Assembly (NCBI GenBank): GCA_903813345.2
Contig: CAIIXF020000001.1
Location: 7,006,001 to 7,070,000, forward strand
DNA from: Owenia fusiformis
Lineage: Eukaryota
DNA length: 64,000 nucleotides
Reading direction: 5' to 3'
The notes under the pieces: model-generated
Database searches by the model: none
Told to the model about the DNA's origin: nothing
What the model saw: the letters and a program-made list of their open reading frames with translations, nothing else
Part shown: positions 1-60,496 of the stretch, piece by piece
How positions within the stretch are numbered: the stretch's first letter is position 1
Layout of the letters: each line of letters opens with the position of its first letter
Position numbers and translations under genes: made by a program

Positions 1-974
1 GCTTATAAAGTATCTCGCATCCAATCATGGGTTTATAGTACATGAAGTTAGAATGTCGATTATAATTCAATTGAATTCCTCTTGGTTGCTAATCATTTTA
101 GAATATCAAAATTTTTTGTCCTGCATTTACCATTTTTGAAATATACATAACCTTGTTATTGAAAAAATAATGAAAATCTTATGTAGTACTTATAAGAATA
201 TTTATTGTACTCTTTAGACATTAAAAACTTTTTGTTTTTGGAAATCAAACACTTCAGATTATGAGGTGAGTTGATTGATCATTTGACAAAGAACATTACA
301 TTTTAATGGATGCACTTTCAATTTATTTCAGTTTAAAAAGGAATTTAGACATCTGGAGTACATTGTTCGAAATTTAAAGTAGAAAATTCCTAATTTTATT
401 ATCTATGTATGCCATCATAGTCTCCGTGGTAACAACAGCCAGTTAAGAACTTTGGTAGCAAATAATGTTTTGATAAAGTCCCCATGCCAGGAGGGTAACC
501 ATGATCTAAAGTCTGACAATGCAAAAGTTGAGAATATCAAAAAGATAAAAGAAGTTCTTGCTACCTTTACAAAACTTTAGTTGAAAAAGTATGTTTCTGT
601 AAAATTCTGAATAACCATGAAACATTTCTGTTGTTGATTTCGTAGAATACTTTGAAATTACTATAAATCATTTGTGTTGTTGTTTATGATTTGTAGTATA
701 ATTTGCAATTACTATAAAACAATCGTGTGATTGTTTATAATTTGTAATATATTTTGAAATTACCATCAAAACATTTGTGTTCATGTTCATGTTTTGGTGT
801 TGTTTTTAGCTCACATGTTTTATATTGACTTAGCATTTTTGCACTGCATTTCAATTTGTTGCACACTAGGACCAAGACTTTATATGCATGACACTGTTTT
901 TAGCTCATTTATGTTATGTTGTATTATGTTGTGTAGTTTGATGTAACTGTTTTGTAGTGTACTCTAATTTGTAG

Positions 975-3900
975 TGTACTAGGAGACTCTAAGTGTGTGA
1001 AGCTGTTGCCTTTGGATGCTTTGCTACATTGCTGCTTCTTCATATTTAGCATGTTAAGGGTAGATATTCTATTAGTTATGTTATATATGGAGGTTTTTAA
1101 TGGGAGGGATGGAATATGAATTTTATTCTGAGGGAAAATATGATATTGGTCAAGAAAAATATCATATTGAGCGAGGGTGATAGCCCGAGTGTCAGTATGA
1201 TATTTTCAGAGGTCTACATCTTATCCCCCTCAGTCTATATCATATCGCCCTCGGTCAATTTGATAATTTCCTTGGCCAATATAATATTTTCCCTCAGAAT
1301 AAAATTCATTCCACCCCTCCCATTAAATAAACTCTATTTATTTTTTGTTATTTGTTTCTACTTTAGTTATAATTTACTGTGTACACTTTTTATTTGTATC
1401 ATATAAAAAGTGATAGCCCCTTGTTCAAAGGCCTCTAAACTATTCATTTGACACTTTTTACATTTTTTACATTTTACATTACTGTGTTGCAATTATTTGT
1501 ATGTTAAATTAGACATTAGCTTGTCATAAACTTTACCTTTCAAACATTTCAAAAGTTGAAACTCAATGTATATTATATTTGGTAAAACTGTAGTACTATA
1601 AAAGGAAAGCAGTTTTCAATGTTGTTGCCTATCATGCACTCTATATAATATCTAGTGACTGTTTATGCTCATTGAAGGTGGTGAAACAAACAAAATGGAA
1701 ATTTTCATGTTGACCCTTTTCATCAAAGAAGACCACATCATGATCTACAGTTGCTGGAATAAGAGAGTGTCAATTATCTTTGTGTGATAAAATATATCTA
1801 CATGTATCATGGAGTATTTCCCATGATACATGAAATTAATGTACTATGAAATTAATTTATTTAAAAAACAGAATTCACTCCTTTAGTAAATATACTGCTC
1901 TAAAAATAGGAAAAGTCACCTTCATAAAGCATGGAACTAGACATTTATATAGAATGTATCTTATTCTCATGAAATGAACATTATCCTTGCTTGTAAACAT
2001 CATATCACTTCATGTAGGACTTCTCAATTCTTTGTTATAGAGCCTGGTTACTATAGCTTTTATGTCACCACCACAGATCACAAGTGGTGACATATTGTTA
2101 TAGTCTCCTTAGTAACCTTTTGTGCATTTTAAGTTTGGAAACGGAATATTGAATATGAATACTAGAAAGGGCTAGGGAATATGAAGACAAACATATGGAA
2201 GAATATAAAATCCTACCACCCATGCTGCCCCTCTTAGTCCCCCCCATGGAAACAACCCTGAATGCCTAAGCAATTTCTGTTTCAGTTTGGAGTGTGTAAG
2301 AATGGCCTTATGTTCTGGTCATCACTGAGCACCATTGTTGACATCTTCACCATTCCACAACCTTTCATTGCAATCTATCTGGGCAGAAACTGGCTTGGTA
2401 AGTGGCATGATTTTCACTTCTTTTTTCATTGTTTGATTGAATCATTTAATATAATATCTTGAGAAAAAATTAGATGAAATCAGTATCAGTATTTGGTTAT
2501 TTATTTTATCTGGTAAATTACCAATTGTGTTTCGTCAGTTTGAAGTGTAAATAGAGTCAATTTTTCTTTTCTGAAAATATAAATCTTTTTTATTCTAATT
2601 TTTTCTACATGTGACATATACCTAATGTAGCACCTTATCAAATAACTTTGACCACTGTTATACTTAAAAAGGCCCCCCCAATGGCAGATTGAGTCAATGA
2701 GTGCATAACATGTGTAGTATATGATGGTCACAATGTCTGTTCACATATCTGTTCACATTAATGTTCCCTCAGCAGTGGGTGTATTGCTAATCCTATTAGT
2801 GTGATGCACCATGCATTAATCTTGTACAAATGAAGGAAAATACAAACCTGGGATATGGACATTTTCCAAATATGTCAAGGCTAAAATAGTTATGAAATTA
2901 ATTTTATTCAGCTTAAATATTTTCATCCCAATTAATAAGGTTCAGTATGGGTAAAGCAGTCAAGCCAGCTGTCCATTGTTCTATTTATTGTTATACATGA
3001 AGTAAAACCTCTGTATAGTGAACACCTATAGAGCCACAAAATAGTGTTCACTGTAGGTAGGTGTTCCCTGCAGAGGATTTTTAAACAGGAGTCAATGTGG
3101 TGCGTGTCTTGAAGTGGTTTTCACTAAACACAGGTGTTCACAAGAGAGAGGTGTTCACATGTATTATGTGGCAAATATGTCATCGTATATTTGGTATTAT
3201 AAATGGGAGTCACTTTTTATGTGTTTCAATCAAACCCCAAAGTTAGCAATCAAAGAAACACAGTACATTAGTATATGGAAAAATGCTTCAAATTTTTGGT
3301 TCGAGTCTTGTATATTTCAGATAGATTAGTTTTATGTACAGTTACCATTTGGCCTCTTGTAATTTAGGGATTTTTATCCATAATACTTTTTTCAAAAATA
3401 ACATGTCATGTTTTCATATAATTAAAATGTAATTTATTAAGTATTCTGTTTTTTCTTCATCAATTTATAAAGTTTATCAACATTTTAATTTTTGAGTACT
3501 ATTTTATCACTCATGATATATGAATTATATAATAATATATGATAATAAATTAGTACTCTTAATATGAGCGCTCAATGAGTAATGAAAAATCAATGAAATT
3601 AGTGCTATTTCATCCCTCATGATATGTGTACTCATTTAGTACTAAAACATGCACTAATTAGTACTCATAGAATGAGTGCTCATTGAGTAATGAAAAATCA
3701 ATGAAATTAGCGCTATTTTATCACTCATCATATGAGTACTCATTTAGTACTAAAACATGCAATAAATCAGTACTCATGTCATTACTGCTCATTTAGTACT
3801 AATATTTACTGAACTGAGTACTAAAATGCCATGAGTACTATTTTAGTACTCGGTAAATCTCCCTGTGTACCTGTCCTTTAATATTTTTGACATTTGATTG

Positions 3901-6900
3901 TAGGTCTTAGATTTCTGAGGGCCTTAAATCTGATAATGGTTGCTGAAATATTACAGCTTCTTGGCTGGTTGAGGTCAAGGAACAGTATCAGAATGACTAC
4001 TCTAGCAATGATCTTTACTGGGGTCTGGCTCTCAACATCAGGATTTGTACATCTTGTAAGTAAAGAACATGAAATGTTTGTATTTTGACACTCAAACTTG
4101 GTTCTTGTAGTAACTATAATAAAGCACTAATATATTTAGTTTATATTTGTATATAGCACTGTTCTTCTCAAGTTTACAAATATATCAGTGATTTTTTTAT
4201 GTTCATATGAAACCAAGTTAAATTGCAATTTAATTAGCTAAATGCCTTCCTCTGTATGAGTTTGTGCATTTCTTTTATAGTCTATAGATTGGTTTTGATT
4301 CTTTGAATGATTTCTTTATATTATATCCTTACATGGTTGTAATTTAGGTAGAAAACACTGGGGATCCCTTTTATGAGTACAACAATGGTCAAAGCCTCAC
4401 ATATTGGGATTCAGTCTACTACATGTTGGTTACTATGTCTACTGTTGGCTTTGGAGACATCAGCTGTGTAACTGTAACAGGAAAGATCTTCATAACTGCA
4501 TTTATTATAGGATCTTACGTGAGTAGTTTAATGCATCAATTATGTTTTAACCAATCTGCTTTCAAAGTAATATGTTCGAACCAATTTTGTTTCAAAATGC
4601 AAATTCTAACAACCACACATCAGGATATGATTTTGCCTATCCTAAACCAAGATATGTTTTTCTTCAATATTTGTTTGTATTTTCATTTTGAAAAAGGTTG
4701 TGTCAGCTTTGGATATACTGGTCGCTAGATACAATGTATAGACTGTGGACTGATTTAACAGCATGATAATATGCTTGAGTGATTTCTGAACCACAAGCCT
4801 ATGAAATAACATTTTACGTGTGCACAAAATAGATTTCATATAAAAATCAAAATGTGTGTCTATGCTGTAAGCCTTACATAAAGTAAATCACTTACATAGT
4901 GGTCACTTACAAGCTTACTGGCACTTACTCACTCGCCTTCCTTAAATGTCCTTAAATGTTGTTTTATGTATAACTTGAAATGCTAGCCTATAATGCAAAG
5001 TGCGCTAGGCAGCAACTACTGTAATTACTGTATACCTTTGAATTGAATAAATATATAATGAAATGAACGTAGTGGTCACTATGGTGGTTGCTTATGTTTT
5101 AGGTGATGTTTGGTAACATCATATCAGAAGTGATTTCATCAATGGCTACTAGCTCCAGACGCATGTACAGGAATTGCGATCACATCTATACTAGAAAGTA
5201 AATATGCTATTCTTACATCTGTACATCTATTCTGTTTGAAATCATGAAATAGGCATGTCATATTGTTGATACATTACAGTATTTTACTGTCAACAATCTT
5301 TTCAATTTTAAAACTTTTATATGGCTCTTTGGTGATATATTTTAATGGTAGTACAAAATACCCCAAAGATGAATAAAGAAAAATTACCCTAAGCTGTCAA
5401 AAACTTCCATTTTTCACCTTCATAATGTCAATGGGTTTGTGTAGACATCATTTATTAAAGCGAAAATTTAAAAGAATATTTTATTTTTATTGTGAATCAT
5501 ATGACTTTTGAACAATTTAACACTCATGTGATTTAAATTTGTCAAACAATATGCACTTTTCTTAACGACATATATATTTTCCAGGTTTGTAATAGTATGT
5601 GGACACATCACCTGCCATTCTGTCACTTCATTTCTGAAAGATTACTTGCAGAGAGATACACACATACAAGGCATAAGAGTGATATTTGTGCACAAGTAAG
5701 AGATACACAATACACATACATAGGCTTGCATACATCACTCTCTTTTTATGTCACCCCCAAAAATTGAATTTATTTTTCAAAACCATTTATGAGTTCTCAG
5801 AAGTTCAAATCTGACTATACATTTGAGATTTGACCTTCGATGACCTTCTCAAGGTCAAAAAAAGGTCAAAGGGTATTTTTCATATTGTTTCAAATTGACC
5901 AATTTTTTCAAAATCATCTACAAGTACTCAGAAATTCAAATCTGTCATAAGATTTGAGATTTGACCTTCAATGACATTCTCAAGGTAAACAAGGCCAAAA
6001 GGTCTTTTTACAAGCTGCTCAAAATTGCCCAAGTTTAATTTTCAAAATATCTAAATTGACATGAAACATGACTACTACAGTGATCATCAATTTGGCATGT
6101 TTTATAATGTTTAACTTTTAGCAAAATCTGGTACATATTATGAGACTTGTGCTTACATTTAACTTTTGATCACTCTAGTTAGCTAAATACAGTATTGTGT
6201 GAAATTAGGTGGTAAGTGACATTTTTTCATGTTTTAACATTAAAATGCCTTGTCACCTTTCTGTCAACACAAACACAATGCTATTACTATGTTGTATCTA
6301 AAGTTGCTAGTATTTGCAGGGATCCCCCAGGTGAGGAGCTGGAACTAGTCATAAAGACGAACTTCACTCAGGTGCGATACTTCCAAGGTTCAGTCCTCAA
6401 TGATGCAGACCTTCAAGCCATGCATGTAAGTACATAGGTAGTCTAATGCACAGCCTAAACAAATACCACAATTTGAGGCAATCCTCTCCATGGATCTGTT
6501 TTCTTAGTGTCTCGCGTCTTGTTTTCTGAGAGTACATTAAGGTCATTAAATTCATTTTTGGTCAAAATCATATGATGAAAGCAAATGTTTTAGATTGTTT
6601 AATAGATTCTGCCTGTAGCTCATATTTGAGCATGTATCCTGGCCAGAGAGAGAAAACTGTCTGTTTTCGTCAAATACCATTTATAGATAAAATGACTGTA
6701 AACCTAATTCAGCTACAAGACAAGGAACAAGGAATGTTTTATTTTCAGACATATAAGAAGTCCATTCTTACTCTATTTTACTCAAAGTTATACATTTGCA
6801 TGTTTATCACTTTTTCAATACTTTTCATTGTACTAAGTTGTCAATTTCATCTCCAGATGAGCTCAGCAGATGCATGTCTGATTCTATCAAACAAGTGTAC

Positions 6901-9900
6901 ACCAGAGCCCTATGAGGAGGATGTTGCCAACATTATGAGGTGTACAAGTGTTAAGACATTCAGGCCAAATATCAGAGTCATCATGCAAGTCTTACAGTAT
7001 AGAAACAAGGTTAGTGGTTCAACAATGTATGCAATGTATGTAACACATTTCAATATGTCAGTTTCAAGTAAACTGAAGGTTTTGGGGAATTAGGATATTG
7101 TCGCGTTCCAGACTTTTGCCTATAGTCTGGAAGCGATGAGTAATTTTCTACCTTATACTTCTTTGTGGGCCCAGTCCTGGTTTGGTGGACTGGATGAAAC
7201 GACAGTCACAAATGGCTTCAAATTTAATACATATATTTTAACACACACTAACTATACAAGAAAATAACACACTTTAATGCTCATAGACTAAAATGTCACT
7301 TTGATCTCTCTTTATAAGCTTGGTAGTGGCCGTTACTGCTTTCTTACTGCTTCCTATGGCTCTTAAGCTCTTTACTCGGCTCCTCTGCCTCTTTATGGCT
7401 CGTAATTTTGGCTCAGCTCCTCTGGCTCTTCGTTCAGCTCCTCTGGCTCTTGAGCTTGGCTCTTCTGGCTCTTAAGCTTGGCTCCTCTGGCTCCTGAACG
7501 TGGCTCCTCTGGCTCTTCGTTCAGCTCTCTTTGGCTCTTTAGCCTGGCTCCTCTTGAGCTTGGCTCTTCTGGCTCCTGAACTTGGCTCCTCTAGCTCCTC
7601 GTTCAGCTCTTTGGCTCTTTAGCCTGGCTCCTCTTGAGCTTGGCTCTTCTGGCTCCTGAACTTGGCTCTTCTAGCTCCTCGTTCAGCTCTTCTGGCTCTT
7701 GAGCTTGGCTGCTCTGGCTCTTCGTTCAGCTCTCTGGCTCTTTAGCCTGGCTCCTCTTGAGCTTGGCTCTTCTGGCTCTTAAGCTTGGCTCCTCTGGCTC
7801 CTGAACGTGGCTCCTCTGGCTCTTCGTTCAGCTCTCTTTGGCTCTTGACTTTTCCAGGGAGGCTCCTCACTGCTCGATGCGATGGAAGTCTTCCTGGAAC
7901 TACTTCTGTCAGCGGTGAAACCAACTGACAAAATACTTCTCTGTGTTGGGAAGTTTCTCAATTGCACCTTACAGCTAGTGGTGGAACCGAACTAACTGTA
8001 ATGCAAGGTTGCTTCCAGAATGTTCCTTGCTGCTTCCTCAAGGACAACACTGAGCTCTGAATCTCTTTACAGCACTCTTAAGAATGGAAGTATGAAGCTA
8101 TTCTTGCTTTCAATTAAATCTAACAAATATCTCACTAACTTAGAAAGCCTGGGACACAAAATGGCGACACACAGTAGATCTGGATACCTAATGAACTAGA
8201 AATTACGATCAGTCAGAGGCATCTCAGTAGCATGCTGATCATAAAGTCACAAATTCTGGTACACTTGAAATTCAAAGTTATAGTCAGTCAGAGGCATCTA
8301 GTAGCATGCTGGCCATAAAATCACATAAACAAAAAGGAAAAATCTCACCCGAATCAGTGCTGCTTTCTCTTAGGCCCAAAAATTCGAGTTTCCTCTCCTG
8401 TTTCTCCTTCTAAAACGTCCTGGTGTGTCTTCCCGCTTTATTCTTCTTAACTAATCCCAAATCACTGGCTGATGGCTACTCCAAAGCACGATAATTGTAG
8501 ATTTTCTTCCAAACCTCAATTCACACTGCTTCATTCAAGATGGCGACCTTCCTTTTTTCTCACGTGATGGCATGAGTCATAGGCACAGGTTATCACTATT
8601 TAAAATCAGGGGCACTGCATTGCAGCAATTGAGGGGAATCCCCTTCCTATCTTGGAATACCCACTTGTGAGCAGGGGTTTTCCTATCCCTTGCATAAATG
8701 GACTAATAACCATAAAACTGCACCAGTGGGAAAATTAAAAAGGATAAACACAAAAAATGAAATTTTCCCACAATATCATATTTTTATTTTCTTGTTGTTA
8801 TGTTTTTGAATTGTGCAAATTTTCAGATGTCCTTTTATACCTGATACTCCTCAATTTAAAGGCTTAATAGCTATACATATTTTTGGGGCCTTGAAGACGC
8901 TTGATAGCTATAAAGAGATTACTCATACTTGTCAATATGTTGTGTATTCTTATTTTCTCAATGTTGCTATTTGTGCACATTTTATCTAAACATACATGTT
9001 GACACTCTATGTGTTACTTTCAGCAAAGGTTGAAGAATGTTCCACATTGGAATCCAACAAGGGGTGATGAGGTTATATGTGTTACTGAGCTCACCCTCAA
9101 CCTGATGGGTCAACATTGCATCAGTCCATGTCTGCCAACCCTAGTTGCTAACATCATCAGGCCATACTCATCTGTGGCTAAACATAAGGTGCAGATTTTG
9201 CCTCACTTTTGGAATTATGTTGTGGTACTAAGATTGTTATTATGTAAAGTTGCTGTCACATGGGGGATACATGTATCTTGTTTTAAATCTGTTTGTTTTG
9301 CACCATGTATCCATCATGTATGCCGTGCCCCACTGTAAACCCAAAAGTATTCATACAGTGGCAAACGGTGCGCACACACAGTTTAAGGGGAGGCATCAAA
9401 AGTTCGATGTCGGATAGAAAACTAAATAAATCTAGTTAGGGGGAGGGGGCTCAAACCCATATCATATCAGTTTGCTATCCGACAAATTTCAACATTTCAA
9501 ATTTTGGGCAATTTTGACTCAGAATGCCTTGGAATGGTTTAAAAATAAAGGTTTTACCTGATGCTTTCTTCGTCAAGATCATTCTAATAGACTCTATTCT
9601 ATCAATAATTGTTAAAAGCCGCAAATAACGATAGGAATTAACAAAAACTAGATCATGTTTAGCAATAATTTTTCAAATTCTCAAACCGGAAGTCCAATAT
9701 CAACTTTCATGGTATTTAGTTTTGAGGGGGAGGAGGGGGGGTCAAAGTCAAAACTGGATTTATTTAGTTTCCGATCCGACATTGAACTTTTGATGCCTCC
9801 CCTAAGTGTGACAGCTCCATATATAACTATAGAGAGTAAGTTATGATATGACCTATTCGCTCAAGATATTTTGGCACAGCCCCAGGAACATGTATAAAAA

Positions 9901-12900
9901 ATCGAGTCATCATCTGAATAAGTAATACAGATGTCGACTCGATATTTGTATACATGTTCCCTGGGCCTATGGCTGTATTTAAGATTGTAAGATGTATGGT
10001 GTTTATTTCAGATCTACAAACTTGAGAGCTGGGAGAAGTCTTATCATGAAGGTCTCAAAATGGAGGTCTATAATGTTGCATTACACAGAAGTTTCAATGG
10101 CATGCCATTTAGTGAGGCCGCAAAGTAATACATTATTGCATTATTGTTTTCTGAAGCCATGCTACAGAGGCATCGGTGACATACTAGTTAAATCAAGAAT
10201 AACAAATTAAAATGAAATTCTAGAAAACAAACAAGTAGCTTATTTGATAAATAACATCACGGGATAAACAGAGCAATTGAATTCAAGGTATCTAATAGTA
10301 CATGGGCAGTGCCTGAGCCCTGCAATACTCGTCTGGTCTTTAAACATAAAATTGGTATTCATATATTATTGTGCCGTAATTCTCAATCTTTATTCCTTAA
10401 ATAGAAATGGTCCTTATATTTTTGTAGAATATGTTACTGTGAACTGGATGTGCTCCTCATTGCCTTGTATACACCTGCTTCTCAGGGTGAAGATCCTTCA
10501 GATGTTTGTAGCACATTTCTAGTCAACCCGTCTGAGGACTCAGTACACAGTAGAAGTGTAGGGGTCTGCATAGCATCTTCTGCTGCTACAGCTAAACAGT
10601 ACGTACATATACATGACAGTTGGTGTTTGGTGGTTGGTGCTCGGCGTCTGTAACAAGTGGCAGGTGGTGACATTTTGCATGTTAATGCCTTGTTATCCAA
10701 TACTATGGAGAGGTATAATTTTGATGGTTAATTAAATAACATCCATACTCATCATGTTCCATCACCATTCTGATTCTTTATGATATCATAATACGAGATG
10801 AATTCATCCTTAAACAATATTAATTGGCTTGTTCAATACATCGCTTGTTCAATAGTCAAAACTATTGACCACTCATTGACCAATCAGAGTTGAGTATTTT
10901 GACTAAGTTAGTAATAAAATGAATAGTACATGGTAGTTTTTTAGCTCACATGGTGAGCTTTTGCAATCGCTCACTTATCCATCTGTCTGTCCGTCCGTCC
11001 GTCTGTCTGTCCGTCCGTCAACAATAGTGGCACGTTTTAAAACCTCTGTCGATAGGATTCCTGTTTTAAGTTATTTCTGTTCAACATCAATACAGAAAAC
11101 TCCCCTATGACTCCTGGTTAAAAAGCTCGCCTATTTTCAAAATGGCCGCCATTTTTGTCTCGCGAAATTCACTTTTGACTGGCACGTTTTAAAACCTCTG
11201 TCCATAGGATTCCTGTTTTAAGTTATTTCTGTTCAACATCAATACTGAAAACTCCCTTATGACTCCTGGCTCAAAAGCTCGCCTATTTTCAAAAAGGCCG
11301 CCATTTTTGTCTCGCGAAATTCACTTTTGACCTATTTCCTACCTTTACAAATAATTTCAAGTGTCCTACATTGTAAAAATCCATGTCAATGTAAAGAGTA
11401 GATGTATGAAATAATTTTGTTACGAAAAATCAGCAAAAAATTATATCCATTTTTTTTATTTTCAGCCATTTTAGTTAACATTGATTTGTCCATCTGTCTT
11501 GCAAAATCCACTTTTGGACCATTTGCCTTAAACCCTCTGTCGATAGAATTCCTGTTTAAGTTAATTTTGTTCAACATCAATACAAAAAAACTCTCCTATG
11601 AGTATGACTCTTGGTTCAAAAGCTCGCCTATTTTCAAAATGGTCACCATTCTTGTCTCGCGAAATTCACTTTTGGCCCATTTCCTAGCTTTACAAATAAT
11701 TTCAGCTGTCCTGCATTGTAAAAAGCCATGTCACTGTAAAGAGTAGTTGTATGAAATAATTTTGTTACAAAAAGTCGGCAAAATATTATATCAGTTTTTT
11801 TTTTTCAGCCATTTTAGTTAACATTGATTCGTCCATCTGTCTCTCAGTCAGTCCAAAAAAGTGGCAAGTTTTAAACCTCTGTCAACACTTTTTAAATCCT
11901 CTGTAGATAGGATTCCCGATTTAAAATAATTTTGTTCAACATCAATAAAGAAAAAAAAACTGTGACTCCTGCTTCAAAATATCGCCTAATTTCAAAGGCC
12001 ACCATTTTTGTCTCGGGAAATTCACTTTTGGCCCATTTCCTAGCTTTACAAATAAGTTCAGGTGTCCTGCATTGTAAAAAGCCATGTCTTTGTAAAGAGT
12101 AGTTGTATGAAATAATTTTGTCATAAAAAATCTGCAAAAAATTATACCCGTCTTTTTTATTTTCACTTTTGAGCAACACCATGTGAGCCCAGTACCCACG
12201 GTACTAATTTTGTATTAAATGTCTCGTTCAATATACAATAAATTGACCTGAAGATGTAGTCATTTAAATCTACATATAATCATCTTCACTCTTCAGTAAT
12301 CGAGCTGTGTGTCATTAGTAAATCATATTTTAAAAAATGTGATAATATTCAAAACTTTAAAATACAACATAATTGCATGGTTGTTGTTCAAGCTTTAATG
12401 GTTTCTTAGGTATGTTCATCGTCTGTGCCAGAATATAATTGTATGGTGGGTGTTCTAGCTAGCTCTAAGAGTTGACAATAATTGCATGGTTAGTTTTCTT
12501 GCTCTAGGATATTAACATTGTCTGTTGTTTAAGTTAGATAGTTTCATGGTTTATCTGTTAATCTATTCAATAGTTGTATATTATAACTGCATGTATATTG
12601 AAATAAAGGTCACACAACATTATCATACATATACGTGTATACATATGTATTTCTAATTTTATTTATGAAAATTCATTATAGAGTGTCAACTTGGTGTACA
12701 CAATGTCTTCATCACCATGGTGACCATGACTGTTTCGCAGACCAGCCAACCAAATCAGTCAGCAAAAAAGGTACATTTCATTTCAAAATATGAGACAGGG
12801 GGTAGAAACAAATACAGTGAATGCATAATGGCATGTTCTTAATGCATTTAGGTTATGAACATTTCCAATGAATTGTGGGTTATGTTGTAGCAATCATCAA

Positions 12901-15900
12901 ATTAGTTTTGACACTAAGTGCAACAAGACTTGGCAATTTCACATGCCTCGAAAGAACACTAATTGTGATGTCTGATTTCCTGTTGGTTTTCTATTATGGT
13001 TTATGATTTCCCATTACTTTTTTTTTTTAGAATACACACTGGTTTACAATATATTGCCACAGCCCCCAAGGCATCTTAACTCCACCACAAGTCATTTGTT
13101 ACCAGATCAGTGCAGAACTGAATCTAATGGAGCTGTGAAAAATTATGAAGAAGCTATATGGGTTTCAAGGCCAGCACCTACTTTAAGGTATTTTCATTGT
13201 TCAATCAGTGAGATTATGATTTAAAAATTCAATGTAATTTATTCTTTAAGGTAAATAATAAGCAACTCTATGGTTTACATCTATCTAGCTCTTATACTGT
13301 ACTTCTACCTGTATTGCCATGGAGTATGCTCATGTTATCATGCCTAACCATCGACAATGTACTGTGGCAAAATATATGGTTGTACACTTTAACTGTACAT
13401 TGTCATATTTGTATCAAAAATTATGATGTTTTAAAAGATTAATTTAAGGAATATTAAGTAGAATTTCATGTTTAATTTTATATACATGCTCTTCGCAAGA
13501 CTTTTAACTTTCTCAATACTTTAATAGATTCTCGAGCAATACTCAAATTTTTTCTCGATAATTCCACCCACATAGTTGACCAGTTCAAAAATGTTGGTTA
13601 TATTCACATGGATATGGGTGGAATTACCTAGAGAAAATTTGTGCTCTGCTTGAGAATCTGTTAACGTAATTAAAAAATTCTTGCCAAGAGCATGCACATT
13701 AAACATGAATTGAACATGAAATACTCAAACATATTCCTCAGATAAATATTTTAAAACCTACATCACAATTTTTACTTCAAATTACTACTTTTTGTCACTG
13801 TATGTTGTCAATGGCTAGGCGTGACGTTATAAGCTTGGTAATATTTAAAGGAATAACAATTAACTACAGTACATGTACGTGCCGATGCCCATATATCCCC
13901 CTTATGTTTCCAAGATGTACAACCTGTAATCAATTAATGTATTACTGTATTTTTTTATTTTCATAGGGACAATATACCTTTACTTACTGTTGAAACAAGG
14001 AAGGCCAGCATATGTAAGAGACCACAATGTAAACAGAGTGTGACATCACCAACTACATCTAGATCTTACTACTGGACAAGGCAACACTCAGTCGAAGATG
14101 CAATACTTGTAATACATTTTTACATATTTATTGAATTGTTGATTCAAATTGTTGATGAAAAACTAGCTGCATAGGTCTATTGACATAGGGTCAGAATCGG
14201 CTTTGGCATGAGTTAGAAACCTGTCGACATCACAATTAATCACAGTACAGTTTAATGCAGAAATGCAAGAAAATATAGAGCACACCACCTTACTCTGTTT
14301 CAGACTATAAGCTCTGTGAATCTAGAAAGTAAAACACAAGTTTGATTAGAGTTCTCTTAAGTTTTTCCCAAATGAACATTTACTATTTTAACACTACATT
14401 CCTTGGTGTTCAGATCTTCTTTTCTTCTTCCAAACTGCTAATCTCCATTAAATATATGCTTCTTTAAATTATTTTCCAGACTTCCAAAATGGATGACAAA
14501 AAGTGTGCTATATTACAGAAGCATATAATCGCCATAGTGATAGCCAGTGGAACTGATCCAATTATTCAGCTTGAAAACTTTGTTAAACCCTTGAGGACAA
14601 TAGATAAAGACTATGATGATTTGAGGCCAATAGTTCTTGTTGGTGACAGATATTACCTGGAGAGGGAGTGGGCTAGTTTACAACATTATCCAAAGATTTA
14701 TATTCATGAAGTAAGATCATCACTGGAATAACTATTAGTATAATTCATGTGTTTCAGGTATAAATATCATCTAGTAATCCAAGTATATTCAAACATAAAG
14801 CCTTATATTCCATGTAATAATTGGGTACGAATTGCAAATTGACCATACACATATATTGGTTGTATAATGCCATTTTTCAGTTCCAAACGACCCAAACAAC
14901 AGATAAGGTCCTTGACTTCAAAATGTTTAAGTACCTGATATCCATATTTTTCAGAGTTACCCCATTTTACCTCAAGTTTTAGAAGACGTGAATATTAGAC
15001 AAGCGTCATCCTGTGTCATCCTTTCTGCTGCTAGAGGGAGCTGTTCACACCCAGAATTACGGGACAAGGATGTTGTCATGTGTGCCTTGGAAGTGCAGTC
15101 CCTACTTAGAGAAAACCTGGATTGCAGAATGGTGAATTATGCAGGTGCATCAAATCCAGGTTAGACATAATTAATATAAGGAAAGGAACTACTTTTATAT
15201 GTAGATATGGTACTAGCCCACCAGAAAATATCAGTGTTCATTCATATTTCAAGTTTTTCTCAAAAAGTGTAAATGAACTGCTTGAATTTTGGTGTTTATA
15301 CAAGTTTGATAGTTGACGTCATGCCTGTTTATCAAATGGCAGATAGTTACATTATACTGCAAACCATTTAAATTTGTACGTGCATAATGTATGGTACTAA
15401 ATTGGGTGGATTCTAAAAGATTTGTTTGCCTCATGTTACTTCAGAATACACTGTGCAATCATCAGACTACAACTTTTCTCCAACACCAACTAAGACAAAC
15501 CTTCTAGTCGAGACAGCCAATGATTCCAGCGTGCAGTATCTAGGCAGAGAAAGCACACTGTCCATAGCCATCATGGATTCACTCGTTGTGTCAGTGAGTA
15601 TAATCATACTAGATTGTATACAACACTCACAATTGCATGTCAAACACTGCTTATGGACCCATATGTCCATAGAGGGAAAAGAATGTTTCAAACAACATTC
15701 ATTTCAACATATCCAAAACTTAAAACTTTTAATTTTTTTTTAATTTTTAAACCTTTGAAACTTTCCCGGGAGCAGGATATATTGTATCTGCCTGGAGCGG
15801 GACATATACAATATATCCTGCCCGCTCCTTAGATATGATGTATATTCCCAGGTGATATCTACCCCGAACCCACTCAAGTATGAGATACTGGTTGATATTT

Positions 15901-16916
15901 TCTAGACATATTACTCCCCCTGTGTATCCATGGTGGTTAATACTTTGTCCAGTGGTAGCAGTAGTGATGTAGCATCATTCACAAATCACAAAGGGGAGCA
16001 GACCAGTAGGAATCAAGTCACAACAATAACACTTGAGGATGGAGAATATTCTGAGTATAAGGTATACAGTATTGAATAATAGATCATTTCATTTAAGTTT
16101 TAAAGTGAAGATGAACCATGTTGTCACTTGAAATAACATGTTGTTTGATCTTTTCTGTGACATAATAACATTGTAATATGACCTTAAAATCAGTTGTGGT
16201 GAAAGTAACTTTCAAAGGCAATTTACATAAAAATATGTGTCTGAGCGTTGGCAATGTTTACTTTCAATTTCAACAACTTATTCTTTTATATTCAGAATGG
16301 TTACTATGGGGATCTATTTTCCCATGCACTAGTGACCAATGGTGTGTTGTGTCTGGGAGTACGGAGAAAGTGCAGCCAAACCTTTGGGCAGGAAAACAGG
16401 AGAGTCATCACAAATCCACAAAGCAGTTTTAGACTGAATTCTTCTGACAGTGTAAGAAAATGAACGATCTGATACAAAAATCTGGATCCTTAATTTTTGA
16501 TTACATATACTTTTAATTGCCACTATTGTTTGATTAATATTGTATTTTGATATAGTATTTTTGTGTATTTACACTTGTATTTTCTGGACCATGATTCTTA
16601 TTTATTTATTAACCATCAATGAAGATGACTTGGACATTTTGAAACAAAGTGAAATTTATGAGCAAAAATATAGTAGACATATTTTATTAACTTGTTCAGC
16701 ATCAGGTCTGGGAACCCCTCCCTCCCTCTGACCCTCCCCATCTACATGTACATGGCTTTCCCTCTTGGAGTGGTTAGTAGGGAGGGGGGGGGGACTGGGG
16801 CAATGGTATTGAACTAAAATATTGAAGTAATTGCTCTCTATTTTCAGGTATATTGTTTGTTGCCTCAAGAAAACCCAATGCAGGACAATGGGAACATTAC
16901 CATATCTGAAATATGA
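975..16916 (+). CDS. Divergent Slo1/BK (KCNMA1/KCNU1-family) potassium channel alpha subunit; 5' end (S0-S1) not identified in window
   Basis: Phase-consistent GT-AG exons: 975(or 958)-1059, 2286-2397, 3904-4055, 4348-4518, 5103-5197, 5585-5695, 6320-6425, 6857-7009, 9024-9188, 10012-10124, 10428-10598, 12682-12770, 13031-13187, 13967-14108, 14480-14710, 14955-15159(or 15144), 15445-15593, 15906-16061, 16296-16451, 16848-16916 (TGA). The translation is collinear with BK: S2 LPLDALLHCCFFIFSMLR, S3 IVDIFTIPQPFIAIYLGRNWLG, S4 LRFLRALNL, pore VTMSTVGFGD, RCK1 VCGHIT..FLKD/FTQV.YFQGSVLN/ADACLILSNK/EDVANIMR, RCK2 NFVKPLR/YLEREW/CVILSA/YGDLF/VITNP. No in-frame stops. Confidence 0.92.
1087..1337. repeat. 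Palindromic (foldback) MITE-like repeat
   Basis: ~90-bp inverted arms (taatgggagggatggaatatgaattttattctgagggaaaat / attttccctcagaataaaattcat..cctcccatta). Relatives at 58750-58912, 58995-59145, 38385-38572 and 15765-15888. Confidence 0.8.
3490..3870. repeat. AGTACT-rich ~109-bp tandem repeat / MITE remnant
   Basis: Repeated gagtaatgaaaaatcaatgaaattag and multiple GAGTACT/AGTACTC palindromes. Confidence 0.7.
7099..8772. mobile_element. Probable solo LTR (1674 bp) with internal GGCTC(C/T)TCT-rich tandem array
   Basis: TGT...ACA termini, flanked by ATAT on both sides (7095-7098, 8773-8776). Higher GC than the host intron. No coding domain. Confidence 0.65.
7355..7850. repeat. GC-rich degenerate tandem repeat (GGCTCCTCT/GGCTCTT subunits)
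   Basis: Repeated ctggctcttcgttcagctc / gagcttggctcttctggctc units visible directly. Confidence 0.9.
9387..9802. mobile_element. PIF/Harbinger-like MITE
   Basis: TAA|GGGGAGGCATCAAAAGTTC...GAACTTTTGATGCCTCCCC|TAA, ~50-bp TIRs. Confidence 0.8.
10938..12210 (+). mobile_element. HINE-like element (second family)
   Basis: TTTTTAGCTCACATGGTGAGC, (GTCC/GTCT)n microsatellite, internal tandem repeats, and 3' CCATGTGAGC + AGTACCcacGGTACT hairpin + T-run. Confidence 0.75.
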
Positions 16917-17186
16917 TCAAGATCACAATCTGTGGTGTGAAACAGTGGCAGGATTTAGTGGAAATGCTTATTGGAATAACATGTTAGATTTGAAACTTTG
17001 CTAATGTATATATCATCGAATGGGATTTTAGGTCTGCATTGTATTGTATTTTCGTTACCGCCATATTTTGGCGAGCAGTACCTCATTGGTATATTCCATA
17101 TTTTACTTACGAGAACATGTATTTACACTCGAAGACAGAGCCAGTAACCCCTCCTAGGAGGAGCCCTGTGTTCTATGTGCTCCAAA

Positions 17187-17340
17187 TACACAGACATACA
17201 AGGACACACAACAGCCTTTTTAAAGTTGTGGGTCAAACACCCTGAATTACAAAATGCACAAATTTGTCTGAATCGGGAATCGAATGTGGGTCAGCAACAG
17301 TGGTAACCTTGGCTCTGCCAATGAGCCATAGTAGATGGAC
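17187..17340 (-). mobile_element. tRNA-derived SINE copy
   Basis: Shares tacacagacatacaag, aaatttgtctgaa, agtggtaacct and ccaatgagccatag with the 27-kb copy. B-box-like TTCGATTCCC. Confidence 0.65.
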
Positions 17341-17666
17341 TAAAAAGGAATTAAGGACAGTTATGGTTAAATGTTTGATTTGGTATTGATCAGTAAAGCT
17401 GAATTTACTATTGGAGTTGTTGCCACAAAATTACTAAACTATAGACATACACAGGACTCTTGCTGGAGAATTTTAAATAAATGTAGCTTCAGAACTAAAG
17501 TACCATATATCTCCAAATAAAAATGCTTTCTACGTGCCTGAATATCATAATTACTCCATATTTATATACAAAATGTAAATATACTTATTAATTAAATGTT
17601 TTTCATTTAGGAGACTATATGTAGCATATATATATATAAATTATTCATAAATCTTTTGAAGAATAA

Positions 17667-27000: not shown

Positions 27001-27688
27001 AGTATACACTGCAGCCTTTTATACAAGCTGTGGACCACTCAGTCAAACACCCAGAATGAGATAACGCACCAAAAAATTTGTCTGAACTGGGAATCAAACC
27101 CGGGCCAAGCGATAGTGGTAACCTAGCCTCTCCCAATGAGCCATAGCGAGTGGACCGAAAGTATAGACTTTTGAAAAATAAGTGGCTTAATGAGACGTCT
27201 AAATTAGTGAATAACATAAGGTAAATGTAAGTCTATATATCTATCTATGTCTAGGCCTATAGCTATTCCCGTACATGTAATGTAGCTATTATTCTATTGA
27301 ATAAATTTTGAATTTATCAAGTTTTAATCTACATGACACAATTTTTAGCTCTATTGATACTTACATTTATGCCTGGAAAGGATTTGAAGTATCCATAGTA
27401 TATAGCTCGATGTGATTCCATATCACCACTTGTGACATACTCATTTTTACCCTGTTGAGTTTTTCCCTTGACTTTTTCTGCCAAGTTGTCATCATTTCTG
27501 ATTTCCCTCACTCTTTCACCGCCTCTTTTTGCAAGTTCAATGCTGACTGACAATAGTTCTCTCATGCTAATAGTTTCCCGCCTTTTAAATATATCTATTC
27601 CACCTAATAAGTAGAAGACAACACTGCCAAACAAGACTAGAATCAGGACAATCCCGATAGGGTTTACCTTGACACTTACTGCAGCCAT
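21022..27688 (-). CDS. IMPAD1: Golgi-resident PAP 3'-phosphatase / inositol monophosphatase domain protein (IMPAD1/BPNT2), ~356 aa
   Basis: Exons 27688-27365, 26271-26106, 23775-23668, 21987-21808, 21314-21022 (TAA). N-terminal TM ([19 protein letters not shown]). Motifs [53 protein letters not shown]. Upstream in-frame ATGs extend to 27745, so the start codon is uncertain. Confidence 0.93.
22269..23336 (+). mobile_element. Decayed, internally deleted mariner transposon with ~200-bp TIRs
   Basis: TA|CCAGGTCGTTCAATAA...TTATTGAACGACCTGG|TA. Internal remnants [10 protein letters not shown] (22701), [12 protein letters not shown] and [10 protein letters not shown] resemble mariner HDNA..H, YSPDL..DF and C-terminal GEYF motifs. 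Contains stops and a frameshift. Confidence 0.85.
26987..27156 (-). mobile_element. tRNA-derived SINE copy
   Basis: Minus-strand A box TGGCTCATTGG (27143-27133) and B box GGTTTGATTCCC (27100-27089). Homologous to 17187-17340. Confidence 0.7.
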
Positions 27689-27905
27689 TCTGAATCTCAT
27701 CCTACGTTGGAGATCCACGCTATCGTAAATTCTCCTCAACATCATTCCTCATTGAACTTGCAAGAAGTTGGATTATGTAGGCTTTATATAATTCTTGAAG
27801 TATTTTTCTGCTATTGTTAAAGCAGATTAAAGATCTATTGTTACCTAATACGGTTTGTGGCATTTCAATATTTTATACGAAACTTCGGTCAATGTAATCA
27901 GTACA
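27689..27905. promoter_or_regulatory. Putative compact bidirectional promoter between IMPAD1 and UBE2W
   Basis: Only ~217 bp lie between the divergent presumed start codons. Confidence 0.6.
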
Positions 27906-57924: not shown

Positions 57925-59291
57925 TATTCAAATTGAGGAAAACAAGATCCTCTTTTTAGAAAATACACCTTACATTTTTAAAAAAGTGACAAGGTTGGGT
58001 CTTAAAGGCAGAATCTGATCTATAGGGGGTGACAAAATTACAAGCAACATGTATATTTGACCTACCAATCTATTCCTTACAATATCAAATACAATATCTC
58101 CCAAAAGATTCACAATATGTTATAAATTGGTGAAGTTATTAATGATTCAAACAGTGCAAAAATGAGTGAAAAATGTTTAAATTCTCCCAAATAATAAGAA
58201 TGGTAACCATTCTTATAGAAAAATAATACATTATTGTAAAAATCTTTAGTTTACCTGGAAGAAAGTATGCACTTCTAAAATTGAATTAATTTTTTGTTTA
58301 GCCTGCTCGCTATATCTGATTCTCTCTTTAATCCATAATTTTTCAGAGAGTTGGATTGATATTTTACTATCATGGGGACTTCACTTTAAAGAAAACATAT
58401 TGTTTTAATGAAAACCACTGTATTTATACCCAGAAAGTACTTATGGTGAATGATATGACTGTCTTAAATCACTTGCCATACTGCACACGGACCCTTATGC
58501 TCTCACAATTTTGAATTATATATAAGATCCTGTATCAGCCAAAATCCTGTATCAGAACTATCAGAAAATTTCATGAGACTTAATATTGTGTTATTATGGT
58601 ATATTATGAACCATATTAGTATTAAAAATTATTTCTATTTTACAATTTGTTAAAATTTGAAAATGTGATTCGATAAATTAGATTGTATCATTTATGACAC
58701 CATCATTGGGTGACGACATACAGAACAAGTTTCAGAAAAATATTATGGAATAGATAGGTTATTGATGGAATATGAATTTTTCCTCAAGAAAATATGATAT
58801 TGGCCTCGAAAAATATCATATTAACACTCGGGCTGTCACCCTCGGTCAATATGATATTTTCCCTCGAAATAAAATTCATATTTCATCCCTCCCATTAAAT
58901 AACCTCTATATATCCCGCTGTATCTCCCACTCAGCAATTCCTGGGAATTTTTTTCAGTGCATGTTCTCATAATCTACTAAGTATAGGATTAATCAGTTAT
59001 TTAATGCTCGGTTTGCATACAGGGTTTAAGCCTCGGGAAATACAATGTATATAGCCTCTGTCCCTGTGGTCGCTAGGGTTCATATATTATATTTCCCTCA
59101 GGATATATCCTGTATCCAAAACTTCCCATTAAATAACCCTCATAGTCATATAGATATTGATGATGCGAATTACAGGTCATTAGGCCTAAGTTTAAATATT
59201 TTTGGTTGATTTTAGAATCAGAATTCCAGAAACGTCAATTTAAATTTAACAGTTGACCTTTAATATACTGTTCATACCCTTCTGTACGTAC

Positions 59292-60392
59292 CTTATTGAG
59301 CATAGGTTGAGATTGCGTCATCCTGTCTAGTGATTCTTGGTCAACTGCCAGTAGATTGTTGAAGCTAGGGTTGTTCTCTGGTAAGCTCTGTGTATCAGGG
59401 CATCCTCCCTTTCCTTCGTTGGTTTTACACTCACTGGGTGTGTTAATGTCCTTTATAGCAAGGGCATATGTGGCAGCTGGGGGGCGATTGGCCTGAGGTT
59501 TGAAATCAATGTGTTTGTTGATTTGTTGATTGAGGTTGTTCCTGCTGTCTGAGACGACATCAACAAGACTGAGTTCAACGCTACGTGCGAATGCATCTCT
59601 TAAGTTTGATGAGTGGTTAAAACTCAGTATGCTTCCATTGCGTTTGGCTTGTGCTAATGCCTCACGACGTTTCAGTGCTTTTTCACGCCGCATCTGATCT
59701 TTGTAGAACTCAGCAAAATTGTTAACTATAATTGGAATAGGCAGGGCAATAACTAATACCCCACATATACAACACACTGCACCAACTACCTTACCCAGAG
59801 CTGTCTTAGGGTAGACATCACCATAACCTACTGTCGTCATTGTAATAGCTGCCCACCAAAACGTCTGAGGAATACTGATGTATTTGGGATTTTCGTCTTT
59901 TTCAGCAAAATATGCTAAACTTGAAAACATGAGTATGCCTATAGCTAAGAACATCATGAGCAAACCAAGCTCTTTGTATGATCTTTGTAATGTATAGCCC
60001 AATGACTGCAATCCTGTGGAGTGGCGGGCAAGTTTCAGAATCCTTAATATCCTCATAATACGAAAGATTTGGACAACTCTTCTGACATTATGGAATTGTT
60101 CCGTACTTCTGTTTGACTCAACCAACCCCAAGGAGATAAAATATGGTAGGATTGCTAGTAAATCTATTATATTTAAAGGTGCTTTGAAGAACTTCCATTT
60201 ATTTGGTGCTGCCCAAAATCGGGCTAAATACTCCAATGTGAACCAAGCTATACAGACTGCTTCTACTAATGCCAGCTTCTCATTATCAGTTGGCTGGTCA
60301 TCTTTGTCACGTCCCTGTATTGATGGCATAGTATTTAATGTTAGGGCAATTGTGGATAGGACTATGAATAGTACTGACACTACCGCTACTAC
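59292..60392 (-). CDS. Shab: Kv2/Shab voltage-gated K+ channel, large exon encoding S1-S6 and proximal C-terminus; T1 exon(s) lie beyond the window
   Basis: CAG acceptor at 60395-60393. S4 [23 protein letters not shown], pore [10 protein letters not shown]6 [13 protein letters not shown], Kv2-type C-terminus [27 protein letters not shown]. Donor AAG|GTACGT at 59292/59291; the unspliced frame runs on to a stop at 59235. Confidence 0.95.
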
Positions 60393-60496
60393 CTGCAAGC
60401 ATACATAAGCATATGGTCAAATCAAATCAAAATAAGTTGTTCATAATAAAAGTATAAGTTCAGTTTTCTACAAAAATGAATGAAGAAAATATATGT

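Follow-up and report, generated by a model that had tools for sequence, protein, structure and literature searches.

The locus described here raises the question of whether a Slo1-type (BK) K+ channel can lose most of its divalent cation-sensing apparatus and still be maintained as a working gene. It lies in a 64-kb stretch of DNA from Owenia fusiformis (contig CAIIXF020000001.1, positions 7,006,001 to 7,070,000; hereafter the window), in which numerous short open reading frames (ORFs) on the plus strand between 975 and 16916 are similar to segments of BK channels. An initial annotation, made from the DNA letters alone, had proposed an intact but re-engineered Slo1 paralog, possibly a Ca2+-insensitive, Slo3-like channel. 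Our analysis shows that the gene is intact, spliced, working, evolutionarily constrained and derived from the Slo1/BK lineage. Judged from its sequence, the region probably encodes most of a working, strongly diverged Slo1/BK-family K+ channel alpha subunit, a reading to which we assign a probability of about 0.7.

The window is AT-rich, with a GC content between 0.25 and 0.41 in 2-kb bins. It was searched by tblastn with a goby BK protein (P0091) and a Lytechinus Slo1-like protein (P0076), both obtained when a sequence library was searched exhaustively with exon 8 of the gene. Both queries gave collinear plus-strand matches between 2274 and 16454, with E values down to 5e-15; apart from these, they matched only a Kv channel that is unrelated and lies on the minus strand at about 60 kb, and no second Slo gene was found with these queries within the 64-kb window. 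The exon junctions were read by eye and by script. The resulting hand-curated model comprises 20 exons from 975 to 16594, with AG/GT at every border, 907 codons, zero internal stops and a TGA at 16594. A variant with 21 exons, in which exon 20 ends at 16576 and is followed by a further exon at 16848-16916, has an open frame of 924 codons and evidently represents the end point used by the initial annotation. The stop-free frame and the intact splice sites of that annotation are upheld, the latter at all 20 exons, and the 924 codons in 21 exons come close to its 20 exons with about 928 codons. Exon 1 is a predicted exon, placed by splice and frame compatibility together with a weak protein match. 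Nothing for or against the alternative last exon at 16848-16916 was seen in the RNA-like data among the contigs shown.

The 907-codon protein aligns collinearly with Slo1/BK from S2 onwards to its C-terminal end, and both the tblastn matches and the alignments bear out the earlier statement that collinearity extends from S2 to the end of RCK2. The domain order S2-S6, RCK1 and RCK2 is that of the Aplysia (PDB 5tj6) and human (6v22) BK channels. The segments S2-S6 are present and match BK, the selectivity filter reads TVGFGD, and a tandem RCK1-RCK2 gating ring is indicated by Pfam domains and by the collinear alignment through the end of RCK2. Three of the six exon-bearing ORFs tested gave Pfam matches above the cut-offs, namely to Slo-like_RCK (PF22614), BK_channel_a (PF03493) and Slowpoke_C (PF21014). 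Fold-defining motifs are conserved in the alignment, as had been claimed for the fold residues. A search of the beginning of the window (1-974) gave no match to S0 or S1, and the gene therefore starts upstream of the window.

Evidence for splicing comes from four sequencing runs that were mapped to the window. X1 and X2 are DNA-like, with contigs that cross exon-intron borders (e.g. 6703-7033 and 12583-12796). X5 is RNA-like, a label that was guessed by the tool: its depth is zero in 7 of 30 bins (1-584, 1169-1752, 2337-2920, 4089-4672 and 7009-8760), which fall mostly in introns and in upstream sequence. Record 18 of X5, a contig of 1148 letters, joins five separate pieces that are the predicted exons 15 to 19 (Table 1); the offsets of 2-3 bases at the joints are letters that fit on either side. 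Splicing, the absence of which the initial annotation had named as a refutation, is thus seen for these five exons, at the predicted borders, in an RNA-like run. Over exons 15-19, 16 letters and one 3-letter indel distinguish this transcript from the window. In record 17 of X5, the piece 13029-13167 is preceded by 95 letters placed elsewhere, which would fit exon 12 (89 bases) and the end of exon 11. The raw-read depth of X17 was below 1 over unique exons and too low for use.

Sequence variation points in the same direction. Among the 40 best-supported of 275 variant rows, 30 are intronic and ten are exonic (in exons 4, 7, 8 and 10), and all ten exonic variants are synonymous. In this coding sequence, a single-base change of any kind is synonymous in 22% of cases and a transition in 33%, and ten synonymous variants out of ten would have a probability of approx. 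3e-7 to 2e-5 under neutrality. The gene is therefore under purifying selection within the species. The open frame, the splicing of exons 15-19 and the exclusively synonymous exonic variants together argue for a working gene and not for a pseudogene.

Although the protein is of the Slo1/BK type, it is remote from canonical members. Over 428 shared columns its identity is 38% to the Slo1 protein of the sea urchin and 39% to that of the fish, whereas these two, which come from different phyla, are 70% identical to each other. Compared with full-length Diadema Slo1 and fish BK, identity amounts to 43% and 45% in the voltage sensor, 38% and 39% in the pore, 42% and 42% in RCK1, and 31% and 32% in RCK2, the most diverged domain; the two reference proteins are 64-71% identical across the same four domains. 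Wherever an exon has a PDB match, the best one is BK. Exon 8 reaches 51.5 bits with BK, 36.8 bits with human Slo3 and 20.1 bits with the gating ring of Slo2.2, and exon 15 scores 50.0 bits against Aplysia BK and 37.2 bits against human Slo3, with no match to Slo2. The protein is accordingly closer to BK than to Slo2 (KCNT, Slack/Slick). The species of the top match is mixed: Aplysia leads with two exons (4 and 15) and human with four (3, 6, 7 and 8), and the idea of a mollusc origin based on these scores was rejected.

Phylogenetic analyses, also suggested in the initial annotation, yielded a very long branch but no resolved placement in any of three trees. In an exon-8 tree (62 rows, 51 columns) the window exon is part of a polytomy. 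In a tree of 14 rows and 565 columns, the window protein pairs with P0009, a hypothetical protein of Colinus virginianus that represents a Slo3 fragment with human KCNU1 as its best PDB match (support 86/87, unstarred). The branches of the window protein and P0009 measure 1.57 and 1.31, respectively, against a median of 0.31, and because both are long the pairing is open to false attraction. In a 12-row tree from which P0009 and P0021 were omitted, the window protein forms one branch of 2.2-2.5 changes per column on unresolved canonical Slo1 rows. Across both larger alignments the terminal branch thus measures 1.6-2.5 changes per column, compared to a median of 0.2-0.3. The long branch is the solid result of these alignments; together with the low identity to canonical Slo1, it supports the earlier view of a fast-evolving derivative of Slo1/BK.

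Several searches were directed at closer relatives. The exhaustive search with exon 8 returned 338 matches at E values of 1e-3 or lower, for the most part fragments of a single exon; identity reached 61-62% at best, and no near-identical sequence was among them. These matches include several non-canonical groups, whose fragments are mostly unnamed. A word-index search of longer proteins with the pore exon produced 18 candidates, none of them significant, and the corresponding search of proteins of similar length with exon 15 produced no candidate. A scaffolded exon alignment search gave 2038 matches among 8000 candidates, and the 120 listed consist of two sea-urchin Slo1 proteins and fish BK isoforms, with no orthologue. 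In metagenomes, exon 15 gave 277 pattern matches but no relative, and the pore exon gave 127 relatives, 80 of which were kept, with no orthologue among the twelve loci examined (L001-L012). In the full-text literature searched, supplements lying outside the search, no invertebrate Slo1-like gene without a calcium bowl is described.

The strongest departures from BK concern the positions that sense ligands and voltage. Residue numbers are those of human BK; they were checked against the chain indices of the PDB search, and those above 311 in exon 5 were counted on from the PDB match of exon 4. R167, D186, R207, R210, E219, D362, D367, Q397 and E535 are shared with Slo1/BK, and D153, in the weakly aligned exon 1, is apparently kept as well. 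In contrast, the window protein differs by the substitutions E374R, E399R, N172K, R213N, N449T, M513P, R514Y, H365Q and H394N, and by the loss of 18 residues at the calcium bowl. The reported alterations of R213, E374 and E399 are thus confirmed by the chain indices as Asn, Arg and Arg, respectively. For the pair R514/E535, only the change of R514 to Tyr stands, since E535 is kept as Glu.

The combination of changes at the Mg2+ site can be compared with mutational work on BK. According to PMC5677106, a single mutation among D99, N172, E374 and E399 suffices to abolish Mg2+ sensitivity, and R213 is the primary gating charge of S4. The same source describes that Q397R, which adds a positive charge beside the Mg2+ site, activates the channel via R213, that neutralisation of R213 abolishes activation by both Mg2+ and Q397R, and that R213 is common to mammalian Slo1, Aplysia Slo1 and Slo3. 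The window protein lacks three of these four Mg2+ ligands, owing to E374R, E399R and N172K, and the fourth, D99, lies outside the window.

For the calcium sites the picture is mixed. In the RCK2 alignment, an 18-residue gap takes out the acidic calcium bowl together with the adjoining downstream segment, and the next helix is recognisable; the exon borders around this gap are those confirmed by the spliced X5 contig. Stretches of at least five consecutive Asp/Glu residues are absent from all six frames of the whole 64-kb window, which excludes a hidden alternative calcium-bowl exon, and the claimed alteration of the calcium bowl holds in the form of a deletion. N449, the ligand that a neighbouring subunit contributes to the calcium bowl and that lies, like the bowl, at the contact between RCK1 and RCK2 of adjacent subunits, is replaced by Thr. 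The RCK1 calcium site is formed by D367 and E535 (PMC5677106), and both side-chain ligands are kept, with M513P and R514Y nearby. Because both RCK1 carboxylates are kept, the Ca2+ insensitivity proposed in the initial annotation does not follow.

These features can be combined into a plausible picture of the protein, which would be a K+-selective tetramer with a gating ring. It retains the pore signature TVGFGD, most countercharges of the voltage sensor and both RCK domains, and a conducting K+ channel is the most likely product, because the pore signature and the RCK folds have been kept under purifying selection. Mg2+ activation has probably been lost, given the replacement of three ligands out of four, in two cases by Arg, and the Asn in place of R213. 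With the calcium bowl and the cross-subunit ligand N449 gone, RCK1 would provide at most the one remaining calcium site per subunit, and calcium sensitivity would be weaker or absent. Fixed positive charges would occupy the position of Mg2+ in BK, and the S4 arginine that they would repel is missing. The electrostatic coupling of the gating ring to the voltage sensor may therefore have been either rebuilt or abandoned, and a shallower and shifted voltage dependence would be expected from the remodelled interface.

Several observations weigh against this interpretation. S0, S1 and D99 lie upstream of the window and were not seen. In S6, P320 and E324, two functionally significant positions, are both replaced by Ser (E321 is kept), and the S6-RCK1 linker is one residue longer; without P320 and E324, conductance or gating could be changed in an unpredictable way. 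The 18-residue deletion exceeds the acidic loop, and the folding of RCK2 might be disturbed. The RNA-like support covers exons 12-13 and 15-19, with no joint for exons 1-11 among the rows listed, and because the RNA label of X5 was guessed, its contigs might in principle stem from a processed DNA copy. The variant sample, finally, represents only the best-supported fraction of the rows.

The remodelling of the Mg2+ site and R213 has a parallel. L006, a compact and divergent Slo-like gene at 486-9356 of a 9.5-kb metagenome contig, shares with the window protein the GFG filter, the loss of R213 (Tyr) and an Arg at position 399, and it is likewise removed from canonical Slo1, with 48-50% identity. 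The R213/Mg2+ interface has thus been remodelled in at least one other lineage. The two proteins differ in that L006 has Asp at position 374; they are 40% identical (162 of 407 columns) and do not group in the 14-row or 12-row tree. Exon 8 of L006 carries the signature of the group P0002/P0010/P0041/P0116/P0122, and the contig ends before the calcium-bowl exon. It is conceivable, albeit only as a tentative extension of the Slo1-family reading, that the window gene belongs to an undescribed class of selection-maintained invertebrate channels derived from Slo1 that dispense with gating by divalent cations. In such channels the bowl would have been excised, arginines in place of the Mg2+ ligands would serve as a built-in cation where voltage sensor and gating ring meet, the sensor arginine of S4 would have been removed, and opening would depend on another signal (pH, a ligand or a partner protein), in convergence with Slo3. 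If this were true, L006 with its R213Y and E399R would indicate that such remodelling occurred more than once.

The similarity to Slo3 (KCNU1; human gating ring PDB 4hpf) requires separate consideration. Slo3 is reported from vertebrates only, six invertebrate genomes searched yielded Slo1 alone, and Slo3 is recognised by clade membership, lack of a calcium bowl and synteny (PMC5337896). Slo1 is described as highly conserved from nematodes to humans and Slo3 as fast-evolving (PMC10342799). A functional analogue of Slo3, i.e. a sperm channel that arose by an independent Slo1 duplication and that alkalinisation and voltage open without calcium, would agree with the lost calcium bowl, which is one of these three marks, with the fast evolution and with the unstarred pairing with the bird Slo3 fragment. 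The pairing, however, joins two long branches and is therefore set up for false attraction, and for both exon 8 and exon 15 the score with BK exceeds that with human Slo3. R213, which Slo3 conserves (PMC5677106), is Asn here, and its loss is thus a departure from Slo3 as well as from BK.

Two further details of this comparison deserve mention. Exon 8 (6857-7009) and P0009 have in common a short proline/tyrosine motif where Slo1 has an acidic loop. It was considered as a Slo3 signature and rejected; as human Slo3 lacks it, the likeness is probably due to convergence or chance. H365 and H394, the proton-sensor histidines of BK, are Gln and Asn in the window protein, which speaks against a Slo3 analogue. 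The GFG filter, present as claimed, had been listed among the alterations, yet it is also found in the canonical, calcium-activated BK of Aplysia and is therefore no mark of Slo3; in metagenomes, it occurs in 7 of 12 Slo-like pore exons, including those of canonical-looking genes. Of the proposed likeness to Slo3, the lost calcium bowl stands, while the filter, R213 and the exon scores do not support it, and a Slo3 analogue appears unlikely. As an observation in its own right, the canonical-looking Slo1 genes on the metagenome contigs L005 and L007-L012 carry two to three tandem alternative pore exons per contig, with both GYG and GFG, so that a choice between Tyr and Phe in the filter is possible by alternative splicing within one gene.

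A similarly unlikely explanation is that the gene is not a paralog but the organism's sole Slo1 orthologue, in a lineage with a strongly diverged Slo1. The trees, which leave the protein unplaced, would permit this. Canonical Slo1, however, is highly conserved from nematodes to humans (PMC10342799), as the 70% identity between sea urchin and fish illustrates. Moreover, the Kv2-like gene of the window is well conserved, with an E value of 3e-135 to human KCNB1, and the genome is thus not generally fast-evolving. A single slo-1 gene is reported for almost every animal, with teleosts and trichocephalid nematodes as exceptions (PMC4270693). The trichocephalid nematodes offer a precedent for an invertebrate lineage with a second Slo1-type gene, Slo-1.2, but their paralogs are described as adjoining, arranged tail to tail and grouping as sisters (PMC4270693), whereas the window holds one Slo gene.

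The gene might also encode a silent or modulatory subunit, one that would need canonical Slo1 in a heterotetramer to conduct and would tune the calcium and Mg2+ sensitivity of that channel. The retained tetramer-forming architecture with its lost ligand sites would suit such a role, and purifying selection implies that the protein has some role. In contrast, N449T and the deletion of the bowl change the assembly interface itself, and we regard this proposal as doubtful. A decaying duplicate, a transcribed pseudogene with a leftover open frame, might explain why many important residues changed together and a conserved segment was deleted, but is very improbable in view of 907 open codons in 20 exons with intact splice sites, correct splicing in X5, ten of ten synonymous exonic variants and conserved fold-defining motifs. 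A diverged but working Slo1/BK-family channel therefore remains our preferred reading of the locus, the features of which are compiled in Table 1.

Table 1. Exons of the Slo1/BK-like gene and other features of the window; residue numbers refer to human BK.
Feature	Position	Strand	Content	Evidence
Exon 1	975..1059	+	End of S1-S2 linker and S2	AG/GT and frame; weak S2 similarity; predicted
Exon 2	2286..2397	+	End of S2 to S3; R167, D186 kept; N172 Lys	Human BK segment 163-202; tblastn E 2.7e-6, 2e-8
Exon 3	3904..4055	+	S4, S4-S5; R207, R210, E219 kept; R213 Asn	Ungapped to human BK 206-255; tblastn E 1.6e-12
Exon 4	4348..4518	+	End of S5, pore helix, TVGFGD, start of S6; Y290 Phe (GFG filter)	Aplysia BK 63.5 bits; human BK 256-311
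Exon 5	5103..5197	+	S6 and S6-RCK1 linker; P320 Ser, E321 kept, E324 Ser, one extra residue	Borders and alignment; numbers counted on from exon 4
Exon 6	5585..5695	+	Start of RCK1; D362, D367 kept; H365 Gln, E374 Arg	Human BK 345-379
Exon 7	6320..6425	+	RCK1; H394 Asn, Q397 kept, E399 Arg	Human BK 383-412
Exon 8	6857..7009	+	RCK1 core; N449 Thr	Human BK 417-466, 50.6-51.5 bits
Exon 9	9024..9188	+	RCK1; M513 Pro, R514 Tyr	Counted from K466, ungapped; tblastn E 1.6e-7; Pfam BK_channel_a E 7e-8
Exon 10	10012..10124	+	RCK1; E535 kept	tblastn E 0.01 and alignments; exon alone too diverged for a PDB match
Exon 11	10428..10598	+	End of RCK1	tblastn E 5.8e-4
Exon 12	12682..12770	+	Cys/His-rich beginning of RCK1-RCK2 linker	Borders; X5 record 17
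Exon 13	13031..13187	+	Linker	X5 record 17 covers 13029-13167
Exon 14	14000..14108	+	End of linker, start of RCK2	Borders, frame, alignment
Exon 15	14480..14710	+	RCK2	X5 record 18 piece 14480-14710; Slo-like_RCK E 5.6e-11; Aplysia BK 50 bits
Exon 16	14955..15159	+	RCK2	X5 record 18 piece 14955-15156; differs by 3 bases, an ambiguous CAG where the pieces join
Exon 17	15445..15593	+	Place of calcium bowl, 18 residues missing, then next helix	X5 record 18 piece 15442-15593; ORF holding the exon, alone, without PDB/BK match
Exon 18	15906..16061	+	RCK2	X5 record 18 piece 15906-16059
Exon 19	16296..16451	+	C-terminal, TrkA_C-like	X5 record 18 piece 16294-16451; Slowpoke_C E 2.1e-10
Exon 20	16556..16594	+	C-terminal end; TGA if not spliced further	Phase-0 AG acceptor; conserved C-terminal motif match
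Possible alternative last exon	16848..16916	+	Stop 16914-16916	GT at 16577, AG before 16848
Tandem repeat, intron 2	3544..3798		108-base unit, 2.3 copies	85% matches
Minisatellite, intron 8	7416..7846		GC-richer; nested periods of approx. 22, 80 and 123 bases	Up to 19.7 copies
Repeat, intron 11	10640..12200, also 2075..2108		152- and 203-base units, spacing approx. 350	Depth in four runs
ORF with inositol monophosphatase match	27329..27748	-		Sub-threshold: E 0.0038; 17.2 bits, cut-off 27
Kv2/Shab-type K+ channel	59235..60416	-	Single ORF, 393 codons; S1-S6 core and C-terminal part	Pfam Ion_trans E 8e-56; best PDB match human KCNB1

The Kv2-like gene is the only identified neighbour of the Slo-like gene. 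Within the introns of the latter, the minisatellite of intron 8 yields long spurious ORFs on both strands. The repeat of intron 11 has a very high depth in all four runs, with up to approx. 70,000 in the contig runs and 231 in the raw RNA reads, and many joints connect 2108 with 10646-10673; it has the appearance of an interspersed repeat that is present in high copy number and transcribed. A search of 1-17500 found no tRNA-like element.

BK channels are a main model for the coupling of voltage and ligand sensors to a pore, and the sole known derivative without a calcium bowl, Slo3, is reported in vertebrates alone (PMC5337896). The gene described here is an unusual natural variant of a well-known channel and not a new kind of gene. 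With its bowl deleted and its RCK1 site kept, it represents a natural dissection of the three divalent-cation sites, and charges have been swapped on both sides of the Mg2+/R213 interface. Since it is an evolved protein and not a point mutant, it could show whether gating survives in a ring that lacks the bowl, whether Mg2+ is replaced by the fixed charges at positions 374 and 399, and what else can drive a Slo pore. If orthologues were to span a phylum, the invertebrate Slo family would be larger than the current Slo1/Slo2 picture.

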